Shown here: positions 1-55,171 of the stretch, one piece after another
Layout of the letters: the number at the start of each line of letters is the position of its first letter
Numbering within the stretch: position 1 is the stretch's first letter
Assembly: GCF_964213995.1 (NCBI RefSeq)
Contig: NC_135827.1
Location: 20,336,001-20,400,000 of the forward strand
DNA from: Mustelus asterias
Lineage: Eukaryota
Direction: 5' to 3'
Length of the DNA stretch: 64,000 nt
Notes under the pieces: model-generated
The model's input: only the letters and a program-made list of their open reading frames with translations
Told to the model about the DNA's origin: nothing
Database searches by the model: none
Made by a program: the position numbers and the translations under genes

Positions 1-124
1 GATATGGGAAGATGGGGGGATCAGGATATTGAAATCAATGATCAGCCATGATCAAAATGAATGGCGGAGCAGGTGCGAAGGGCCAAATGGCCTACTCCTG
101 CTTCTATTTTCTATGTTTCTATGT
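1..124 (+). mobile_element. CR1/HER1 LINE 3' end
   Basis: gatcagccatgat...gaatggcggagcagg...ggccaaatggcctactcctgcttcta followed by a (TTTCTATG)n tail; same 3' end as 24165-24319 and 54277-54450. Confidence 0.85.
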
Positions 125-344
125 CTCCACCAATATCACATACACCTATGTATAGGCTTCGTTGTTTAAGATTACATATGAGAAATGGCTAACAGAATGA
201 AGTGGCTGAGGTTGTTAATACCTTTTAAACCCAATTTAAGGATGATGAGTAAATGGGGAACAAAACAAGAAAGAGAAATAAGAGTTCCAGAAATTGAAGC
301 TGAGAAATCCATTACAATCGTCCCTCGCTCAGGACTTTTCCACT

Positions 345-51701: not shown

Positions 51702-53150
51702 ATAATATTTTAATGCTTTTGTTCTCTTTGGGAGAAATTTATTCTGTGCCATCAATTGCGATTGAGATGTCATGTTTTAAATGTCTGCTCCTCATTCCTA
51801 ACGTTTTGTTCAGCAACTCCGGCTTCTGACAATGTTATTAACACAAAGAATTTGGTGAAAAATATCTGTGTGGTCCTTTTTCCTATAAGATTTTGACATA
51901 CAAAATATTTCTTTAACTTTCATCTGCCCTCTGGGTGTCTGGTGAAACATCGATCCTCTCAGGAAACATTTCATCTGTTGACAGCTGTATGGCAGCTTTG
52001 GCCTCAGTTCAAATCAAAAGAAGCAACTGCGGTCCATGATTACTGAATTTCTCTCATTTCTTGGGAATTTCACGCTCACTGGGGTGATATTAGTCTTGGA
52101 AAATGCACCAAGTGTCAAAATCAAATAACACAGGGCTGGTTTAGAATGGTTTGATGTGATTTGCTCTACCCTGACCCATCAATGTACTTCAGCCCCATAT
52201 TCAAAGATCACCCACTTCACCAGTACGCTGTTTTACCATTAATCAGATCAACAACCCTCTTGTTTCTTCCTGAGATTCCCAGAGTGCACCACCAGGAATT
52301 GGGACGATTGGCTAGGTGAGATTTGTCTGAAACAGATTTGAAATGAGATTCTTGAGGTCGAAGACCAGAGGCCAACACAGAATGCCCAACACCCTGCTGA
52401 GATTCTACCTAACTTAGGTGGAGTATGGCCATATTACCTTAGACAAAATATATTCCAGCATGAGGGAACATTTGGACAGGCTGAGTGTGTGGGCATCTGC
52501 ATGGCAGATGCAATATAATTTGGATAAATGTGAGGTTATCCACTTGGGTAGCAAAAATGGGAAGGTAGATTATTACTTGCATGAGTGTAAATTGAGAGAT
52601 ACTCAATGAAATTTTGGTGTCCTCGTGCATCAATCGCTGAAAGTAAGCATTCAGGTACAACAGACAATAAAGAAGGCAAATGGTATGTTGGCCTTCATAG
52701 TAAGAGGATTTGAGGATAGGAATAGGGATCTTTTGCTGCAATTGTACGGGGCATTTATGAGTCCACACCTGGAGTATTGTGTGCAGTTTTGGTGTCCTTA
52801 TCTGAGGAAGGATGTCCTTGCTATAGAGGGAGTACAGCGAAGGTTTACCAAGCAGATTCCTGGGATGGTAGGTCTGTCATATGAGGAGAGACTATGTTGG
52901 TTAGGATTGTATTCATTGGAGTTTAGAAGAGTGAGAGGAGATCTCATAGAAACTTATGAAAGACTAACAGGATTAGACAGGGTAGATTCAGAAAGAATGT
53001 TCCTAATGGTGGCAGATTCCAGAATTAGGAGTCATAGTTTGAGGATAAGGGGTAAACCTTTTTGGACTGAGGTGAGGAGAAATTTCTTCACCATTCAGTG
53101 GTGAATGTGTGGAATTCACTACCACAGAAAATAGTTGAGGCCAAAACATT

Positions 53151-54276
53151 GGGGGGAATTTTACCATTTTGAGTCTAAGTGCCGAATCTGGGCGTCAAAT
53201 ACATCTGCGCTTGGAATCCTCTTTTCAGCGCGCCCATACGCGTTTTGCCGGCTCCAGCCCGATCCGCGCCGTGCCCGGTGCTTAGCACTGGCGGACCAAT
53301 CGGAGCTCTGAACTGCGCATGCGCAGTTCAAAAAAAATCTGACAGAGCGCGCCCGGGCTTGAAAAAAAAAGCGGAGAGAGCGGCTCTCTGACGTTCATCC
53401 TCTGGTCGGGGCGGGAGGGGTGGGGGGGGGGGGCGGAGGTGATGGTGGGTGGGTGTGGCGGGGGATGGTGGGAGGGGGTGTGTGACCGATCATCCCCTGG
53501 GGGCGGGGGGGGGTGGGGAGAGGGGGTGTGACGTATCATCCCCTGGCGGGGGGGGGGGGGGCAGGGGGGGTGGGGGGGGAGAAGTCAACTGCTAGTCTGC
53601 GGCCGATCCCTCCTGCCGGAGTGGACGTGCGGCCATGCCATCCCACGAAACCTTCAGGATGAAGCGATTCCTCGCTAAGAAGATGAAGCAGAACAGGCCG
53701 ACTCCACAGTGGCCGATTCCACATTGTAAAGGGATACACCATTACTGGTACACTACCAGCCACAGCCACCTCTCCCGCTCTCTTGCACGTGCAGGGAAGA
53801 GTAATCTGTGGCTGGTAGTGTACCAGTGATGGTGCCAGGAGGCATCGGCCGCAGACTGGCAGCCGACCCCCCCCCCCCACCCCCCTCCTCGACCAGAGGA
53901 TGAGACGTCACACCCCCTCTCTTCCCCCCCCAGGGGATGAGACATCACACCCCCTCCTCTCTCACCCCCCCTAGCCCCCCTGCCGCCTCCCCCCCCCCCC
54001 CCCCCCCCAGGGGATGATACGTCACACCCCCTCTCCTCCTCCCACCCCCCTCCCGCCCCGACCAGAGGATGACCTGGGTCAGAGAGCCGTTGCAGTCTCT
54101 GACCCCGCTCTTCGGAGGCTGCAGCGGCGACTTCAGACTTTTATTTTGCAGGTCGGTAACAGCGCGGACGCAGATTGGGCAGAAGACGGCAAAGTGGGAT
54201 TTGGCGGTAGAGTTGGGAGCGCGGTTCATTAAGTCGATTTAAATGCATGCAAATTGCGCCCGTTAAAATCAGGCCC
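53151..54276. mobile_element. Palindromic non-autonomous Harbinger-like element carrying an RPL39 fragment
   Basis: Interrupts CR1 ccaaaacatt|gtgtgatttc; att duplicated at 53148-53150 and 54277-54279; imperfect TIRs ggggggaattttac / gttaaaatcaggccc; internal inverted arms about 53380-54090. Confidence 0.85.
53616..53726 (+). pseudogene. RPL39: Captured fragment of 60S ribosomal protein L39 (putative 5'UTR plus codons 1-26)
   Basis: 53635-53712 encodes [26 protein letters not shown], 21/26 identical to vertebrate [26 protein letters not shown] as I recall it; truncated, followed by a 15-bp-period duplication. Confidence 0.9.
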
Positions 54277-55171
54277 ATTGTGTGATTTCAAGAAGAAATT
54301 AGATATAGCTCTTGGGGCTAAAGGGATCCGGGATATAGGGGGACGGCAGGATCAGGATATTGAATTTGATGATCAGCCATGGTCAAGATGAATGGTGGAG
54401 CAGGCTCAAAGGGTCAAATGGCCTATCCCTGCTTCTATTTTCTATGTTTCTGAGTTTCTGTGAACATTCAGCAATCCCATCCTTCCAATGTGGAGTTTTG
54501 CTTGTCCAAGGTGTGAAAGTTTTAGATTCACTGTTAAGTTGTGTAGCCCTACCTGTGGTGTGTTCTTCCATTGAGCAGTCTTCAGCTGGCAGTGCGAAAT
54601 TGGTGAATTGTATCTGTGTGGTGATTAGGAATTCTGTAAAACATGGTGAGACAAATGTGGAAAATATAGAAAATACAAAAAATATATTGCTTTTTTAATG
54701 AGGTAATCAAAATTCAGACCTGAGCAAAAATGTATCTAAATTCATTTAAAGGTCAGCCAATTCCATTCAATTTGTCACACAATCTACAATGCATGAGTGA
54801 GAGCAGAAATATTTCATATTATCTCTAAAACTGTATTTTAATTATAGTTTTCATCTTGAGTGCATTGTGAAAAAAATTATTTTGTATCTTCAGTACTTCG
54901 GTCTCACTCTGTTCCCTTAATAGTCAGTCGACATTTTTTAATCATTTGTCAGGGTTGGAAAATCACTGAGGAAACCACGATGTTACCTGCTGTATATCAC
55001 GTTTGAGTGTTGGATACTTGACGAGCGAATTCCAGGTCTGAGTCTCAATCTCAACTGGCATTAAGCAAGCGTAGGAAACCATCTTGTGGAAAGCTTGGCC
55101 AGATCTCTAAGCTTGAAGCTTCCTGATCCACATAAGAACAATGGTACTTGTTAGATAATAATTGCAGCATA

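Follow-up and report, generated by a model that had tools for sequence, protein, structure and literature searches.

The window that we analysed, a stretch of 64,000 nucleotides from Mustelus asterias, contains a transposable element of 1126 bp (53151-54276) whose centre is occupied by pieces of a ribosomal protein mRNA. The element is flanked on both sides by ATT, a 3-bp target-site duplication (53148-53150 on the left, 54277-54279 on the right), and lies within a CR1-like LINE; its left part (52480-53147, plus strand) translates into a decayed reverse-transcriptase C-terminus, and the LINE resumes at 54280. This arrangement, already proposed in the first-pass annotation, was corroborated by 17 alignments to uninterrupted LINE copies that cross the empty site, where a single ATT is found. 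The left end of the element (53151-53380, plus strand) comprises a subfamily variant of the terminal inverted repeat (TIR) and Harbinger subterminal sequence, and is 86.5% identical (200 nt) to the left end of a 5.9-kb Harbinger (L267) and ~79% identical to those of L160 and L164. Next to it is the G-rich repeat arm of the backbone palindrome, closed by a short filler at the cargo junction (53381-53612, plus strand). The right side (53835-54276, plus strand) consists of a C-rich arm, subterminal sequence, and the right TIR. The element holds seven G-quadruplex-type motifs, compared with 0.4 per kb across the remaining window. Weak TIR-like motifs were also seen at two other positions of the window, 14653 and 21686.

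The RPL39-derived stretch spans 53613-53805, with an inverted 3'UTR copy following at 53806-53834. A frame starting at 53635 encodes the N-terminus of eL39/RPL39 (PF00832, E = 3.8e-7). The leader-ATG-codon run reported earlier is thus real, although its 26 codons include the ATG and exon 3 material follows them. We located the parent gene (G000:C14) using a pattern for the splice acceptor before codon 2, which has two matches, the other being an element copy with a damaged ATG. Exon 1 of the parent ends in the ATG at 8582829; next come a GT-AG intron of 1737 nt, exon 2 with 104 nt, a second and last GT-AG intron of 5322 nt, and exon 3, which comprises the stop codon and 3'UTR. The acceptor of exon 3 is not pyrimidine-rich, and a pattern for it gave no match; this exon was located by alignment. 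In the element, all on the plus strand, the 5'UTR and ATG of exon 1 (53613-53637; 24/25 nt identical to C14:8582805-8582829) are fused to codons 2-26 of exon 2 (53638-53712; 72/76 against C14:8584566-8584641) without the 1737-nt intron. A 12-nt filler, a local duplication, then marks the deletion of 73 nt (CDS 79-151; 53713-53724), a subfamily-wide break identical in all of L001-L030, and is followed by the stop codon and the initial 76 nt of the 3'UTR (53725-53805; 75/81 against C14:8590037-8590117). Since the exons are joined without introns, the template of this cargo was a spliced mRNA. Two suppositions of the first-pass annotation, that the leader is the RPL39 5'UTR and that an intron directly follows the ATG in the parent, are thereby borne out. 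No ends of the transposon family were found inside 60 kb around the parent gene.

The nested inverted arms described earlier are present, at 53566-53615/53836-53885 and 53737-53776/53795-53834, but they call for a different interpretation. They had been read as an otherwise empty hairpin with an insert of ~121 bp (53616-53736) in one arm, the right arm representing the uninterrupted original state. The loop (53766-53805) lies within the exon 3 part, and 53806-53834 (minus strand, 28/29 identical to the parent) contains RPL39 3'UTR a second time in inverted orientation, as the remnant of a second full arm that was deleted. RPL39 3'UTR thus makes up the inner hairpin, and the right arm, which had looked like the pre-capture state, results from a deletion; fuller relatives bear RPL39 in both arms. 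The cacgtg at the centre, though present in the window, arose by two substitutions confined to this copy: CCCCTG stands in the parent, and C is found at 53787 and 53789 in independent runs.

The window element is a non-autonomous PIF/Harbinger transposon. Among 78 RPL39 elements, 48 have a target duplication of 3 bp (4.0 with shuffled flanks), and none has one of 4-8 bp; the right end was mis-called in five of the 78, which were scored as misses. Similarly, 3-bp duplications flank 10/16 OPA1-type elements and 11/20 elements of a third type, both described below. The TIRs are ~14-16 bp long, start with G, and read GGGCC(C/T)GATTTTAC at both ends, the left one being altered in the window subfamily. 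Six fetched elements of 2.9-5.8 kb match both ends of the cargo elements, reaching 84-93% for a smaller RPL39 family. The frame of L159 encodes a Harbinger DDE transposase (PF13359, E = 1.7e-39), and L267, which has the window-type left end, was assigned by the 85-90% identity of its interior to L164 rather than by Pfam. A genome-wide PF13359 search returned 10,689 candidates, of which the best 150 were scored. The Harbinger load of this genome is very large (L129-L164, L267), with near-identical open transposase frames on the small contigs C96, C140, and C471. Autonomous Harbinger partners typically encode a second, Myb/SANT-like ORF; no Myb/SANT match was found in eight other frames, all of them decayed. 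Plant PIF/Tourist elements target TWA, whereas the duplications here are A/T-rich but varied (ATA 6, TAA 6, and ATT 4 of 48) and lie in a palindromic ACAC-NNN-GTGT context, which separates the family from plant PIF but not from the Harbinger superfamily. The earlier designation as a Harbinger-like MITE thus holds for the superfamily, given the 3-bp duplications and the ends shared with transposase-bearing elements. Classical MITEs measure a few hundred bp; most copies here are 1.0-2.4 kb long and are better called non-autonomous derivatives.

A pattern spanning the exon1-exon2 junction had 1265 exact matches genome-wide, while a control had none. About 20 of the first 100 listed matches pair within one element, which brings the number of loci to ~1,000 (hand count). 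Since sampled copies retain the intact pattern at 58 of 90 junction sites, the true RPL39 number is higher. The duplications differ among these loci, confirming the earlier proposal of a mobilised cargo. A search with the insert yielded 1106 candidates (best 40 scored), and all 30 fetched loci hold element sequence outside the insert; a search with the RPL39 Pfam model yielded 3700 candidates (best 150 scored). Out of 179 loci, some of them overlapping, 138 hold RPL39, 134 span junction 1, and 103 span junction 2. RPL39 intron flanks were found in none of the 179, contrary to the suggestion of a Pack-TIR-like DNA-level capture from the gene. Similarly, none of the 138 RPL39-bearing loci extends beyond position 233 of the mRNA, whose poly(A) signal lies at 300, in agreement with the tail-less fragment noted at first, and searches for copies with a longer 5'UTR gave none. 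Among the best 40 of 566 candidates, matches to the distal 3'UTR were limited to the parent and an old retrocopy. The latter (L070, G000:C9:30873680-30873898) is a free copy, 81% identical to the gene and 5'-truncated, with an A-rich end; the cargo is 93-98% identical to the gene.

In its fuller form, present in 7 of the 28 fetched element loci (L072-74, L079, L082, L085, and L088), the RPL39 cargo is a tail-to-tail palindrome with positions -21..232 (counted from the ATG) in one arm and 192..-21 in the other. Relative to this form, the window subfamily has lost 79-151 from the left arm and 163..-21 from the right arm. The arms are equally alike within elements (0.950) and between elements (0.945), and the palindrome was therefore made once; copies of the element differ from the column majority by ~2% at non-CpG sites. 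The smaller RPL39 family has one whole CDS adjoining a decayed 27-nt repeat, and the intact exon2-exon3 junction has 28 exact matches. In one of its members (L034:860-1440), the decayed repeat is a tandem array with a 9-codon period. A single capture is indicated by the filler at the 5' junction, which is the same in both families. The left ends of the two families form two clades (support 100/100) of an otherwise star-like and rough tree, suggesting that after the capture cargo and ends were reassorted or diverged. Cargo-free relatives have a central palindrome of ~300 bp with a long perfect inner stem; RPL39 elements retain its outer arms, and the inner ~120 bp of the core are gone.

Other copies bear other gene pieces, as the first-pass annotation had envisaged. 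Among the first 30 of 648 elements with the window-type left end, 27 carry foreign cargo: 16 RPL39, 10 OPA1, and 1 a third cargo, the remainder being 1 autonomous-type and 2 deleted elements. Of the 395 elements with the other left end, the first 30 comprise 14 that look empty, 2 of autonomous type, 3 with RPL39, 2 with MRPL55, 5 with a further fold-back insert, and 4 in which RPL39-type junction stubs alone remain, 3 of the latter bearing another insert of ~390 nt (L322 was classed from alignment scores and an unlabelled block). In L326 and L331, and probably L322, the double RPL39 is reduced to 5'UTR stubs, and the ~390-nt insert, which has no Rfam match, lies in the left arm. In L309, L312, L316, L317, and L336, a fold-back insert of ~600 nt, part of which is presumably SINE-like, sits between RPL39-type junctions, as if the cargo had been swapped.

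The OPA1 cargo matches human OPA1 and a parent at G000:C3:37261211-37325353. Its long forms (L248, L340, and L187; G000:C1, C5) join 17 exons, which occupy 64 kb in the gene, and run through the stop codon. The cargo is a head-to-head fold-back, cut at both ends and tail-less, stopping ~20 nt past the stop codon. A junction pattern gave 524 matches (control 0), corresponding to ~420 loci by hand count. An apparent template jump within this cargo is instead a later deletion, because the long forms exist. One short OPA1-bearing copy (L231, G000:C3:37294840-37296010), missing its right TIR, resides in an OPA1 intron. We rejected it as a sign of capture in cis: it is a short deleted form, not clearly basal, and a chance of ~2% (hand estimate) attaches to such a location, so that its presence inside the gene is probably coincidental.

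The MRPL55 cargo was identified at E = 2.7e-26, with at least 146 matches among the best 150 and ~70 near full length. Its parent (L356, G000:C8:96301905-96308574) has a 5.95-kb intron that is absent from the cargo. Judging from alignments, in which the junctions were read, the cargo (L330, L334, and L341-L352) includes the whole 3'UTR, ends ~14 nt past ATTAAA at the 3' end of the gene, and merges there into an A-run of the backbone with no visible duplication. Ten loci had appeared to be split MRPL55 copies; nine proved to be copies of the element interrupted by nested insertions or breaks, the tenth being the parent. Nesting is frequent, with other Harbingers lying within MRPL55-bearing copies (L353, L355, and L359), and many MRPL55 copies keep a long open frame. 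The third cargo (L194, L268-L307) is a near-perfect long palindrome of up to ~575 nt per arm with hundreds of copies; two genome searches gave 930 and 784 candidates, and neither these nor Pfam, PDB, protein, Atlas, and Rfam searches gave anything usable on its source. Overall, at least three housekeeping genes (RPL39, OPA1, and MRPL55) are represented in the family as intron-free copies, each at dozens to about a thousand sites.

Spliced templates, a transposon vehicle, amplification, and repeated uptake are thus established for the family. As to how the mRNA sequence entered, we infer RNA-templated repair at the hairpin: with a probability of roughly 0.5, a break at the central hairpin was mended with cDNA, and Harbinger transposase acting in trans then spread the RPL39 element. 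The cDNA may have been produced by a LINE reverse transcriptase, and the break may have resulted from the hairpin, from G-rich fragility, or from gap repair following excision. A single round of fold-back synthesis in the founder would have duplicated the cargo arm, later deletions would have produced the lopsided window form, and transposase supplied in trans would have amplified the cargo element. Uptake would have recurred in one lineage, involving OPA1, MRPL55, and other sequences. For RPL39, this course of events accords with a cargo that sits at the hairpin core, with missing backbone, with the junction filler, and with the absence of a tail or distal UTR. The OPA1 cargo, likewise truncated on both sides, without a tail, and folded back, lends further support. 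On the other side, the putative junction microhomologies amount to only 1-4 nt. Two candidate cues were discarded: a natural 3'UTR stem as fold-back primer was not significant (-9.9 kcal/mol, z = -1.14), and homology between 5'UTR and backbone was matched in score by 403 of 1000 shuffles.

A close rival, and a possible one if not our first choice, is that a non-autonomous Harbinger received its RPL39 from a LINE as a poly(A)-primed retrocopy, a later fold-back duplication erased the tail end, and transposase amplified the product. It comes close because the MRPL55 cargo looks poly(A)-primed and a fold-back could erase a tail. The RPL39 fold-back lies exactly where the tail would be lost, and the missing poly(A) therefore does not decide the route; no intermediate preceding the fold-back was found. 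The MRPL55 cargo, which belongs to the same lineage and ends in an A-run at its parent's 3' end, shows that tail-primed retroposition into the family also happened. The old RPL39 retrocopy with its A-rich end (C9:30.87 Mb), the frequent LINE copies in fetched loci, and the precedent of bat Helitron retrogenes (PMC4224331) also agree with this rival. It is harder to reconcile, however, with the lack of any extension past position 233 among the 138 RPL39 loci and the confinement of the distal 3'UTR, among the scored candidates, to the parent and the old retrocopy, with a cargo that takes the place of backbone at the hairpin centre, and with the tail-less end of OPA1.

We regard it as rather improbable that the element copied processed-pseudogene DNA by gap filling or template switching, with no RNA step at the element. 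Microhomology-guided gap filling at the DNA level is indeed the route documented for animal Pack-TIRs (PMC8277862), and Thomas 2014 placed tail-less Helitron retrogenes in this class (PMC4224331). However, the sole free RPL39 retrocopy found lacks the 5' half and is far less similar to the gene than the cargo is, and three separate spliced mRNAs in one lineage would hardly be drawn from genomic DNA, of which retrocopies are a small fraction. A single-locus accident or chimeric assembly, which nothing except the repeat-rich context favours, has a negligible chance and is refuted by the ~1,000 loci with different duplications and by contigs from three other public runs (one study, one run possibly the assembly's own sample) that run across both the backbone-RPL39 junction and the internal deletion.

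The usual view is that cut-and-paste transposons acquire host DNA. The family follows the Pack-TIR/Pack-TYPE pattern in holding host non-TE sequence between TIRs with parents elsewhere (RPL39 on C14, OPA1 on C3, and MRPL55 on C8), but it departs from the DNA-level pattern, in which introns are kept: intron flanks are absent at all 179 RPL39 loci, and 17 OPA1 exons are joined. From the processed-pseudogene pattern, RPL39 has the intron loss but not the poly(A) at the native 3' end, which MRPL55 does have; truncation and the absence of a tail in RPL39 and OPA1 are traits of break repair. The nearest precedent is the set of bat Helitron retrogenes, for which Thomas et al. 2014 (PMC4224331) describe four events and 118 copies in total, with poly(A) and target duplications. 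Those elements too contain spliced host mRNA, including RPLP0, spread by a DNA transposon. They are, however, rolling-circle elements with poly(A)-bearing cargo, whereas here a cut-and-paste TIR element occupies ~1,000 loci for RPL39 alone, and RPL39 and OPA1 are tail-less and doubled as long inverted repeats. With animal Pack-TIRs, as portrayed in Tan et al. 2021 (PMC8277862), the family shares host sequence between TIRs, internal breakpoints, short microhomology, and later spread. That survey models capture at the DNA level, dropped intronless captures of multi-exon genes by design, and lists 370 cases, most of them as single copies; multicopy families in reference genomes number four, and one ARF6 retrogene in MER20 is mentioned. 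In short, the family works like the bat Helitron retrogenes and looks like a Pack-TIR, but fails the DNA-level definition of the latter. Plant Pack-TYPE and GingerRoot elements are likewise non-autonomous TIR elements with gene pieces, and the plant surveys took in Harbinger-PIF elements (PMC8903248, PMC6839031). GingerRoot captures retain introns and are interpreted as DNA-level (PMC6839031), whereas the cargo here is intron-free; the main text of the Pack-TYPE paper (PMC8903248) contains none of the words intron, mRNA, and cDNA. Tail-less spliced cDNA patches at breaks were described in mouse zygotes (Ono et al. 2015, PMC4516963); as there, the RPL39 and OPA1 pieces here skip introns, are truncated on both sides, and lack poly(A), with short putative microhomologies. 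Those were single events at Cas9 breaks, whereas here a transposon amplifies the cargo. In a search of largely open-access literature, we found no report of a vertebrate Harbinger or other cut-and-paste family amplifying spliced mRNAs.

Repeated uptake and amplification of spliced mRNAs on this scale go far beyond the bat Helitron case (PMC4224331). The family offers a natural test bed for cDNA entry into breaks, for a possible advantage of internal palindromes or host cargo in transposition, and for a possible contribution of long hairpin copies of essential genes to small-RNA pathways. A more far-reaching and doubtful idea is that the family acts as a repeat mRNA sampler, in which breaks at the G-rich centre would take up folded-back cDNA and cargo palindromes would out-replicate empty elements through hairpin-aided transposition or through a likeness to essential genes that would protect them from silencing. 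If so, thousands of dispersed hairpin templates would be able to yield small RNAs against RPL39 and OPA1. The double arms are predicted to fold into long hairpins if transcribed; one sequencing run, X1, is possibly of RNA. On the practical side, such copies will inflate the gene counts of RPL39, OPA1, and MRPL55, interfere with read mapping, and lead repeat libraries to mask real exons.

The RPL39 cargo itself looks neutral in its sequence, and we saw no selection on its coding frame. In copies not picked by protein score, pN/pS is 0.74, and none of the 46 full RPL39 arms in this unbiased set is intact; a 1-nt deletion at CDS 107/108 is common to nearly all of them. Among the 30 top HMM-ranked copies, a biased set, 22 are intact.
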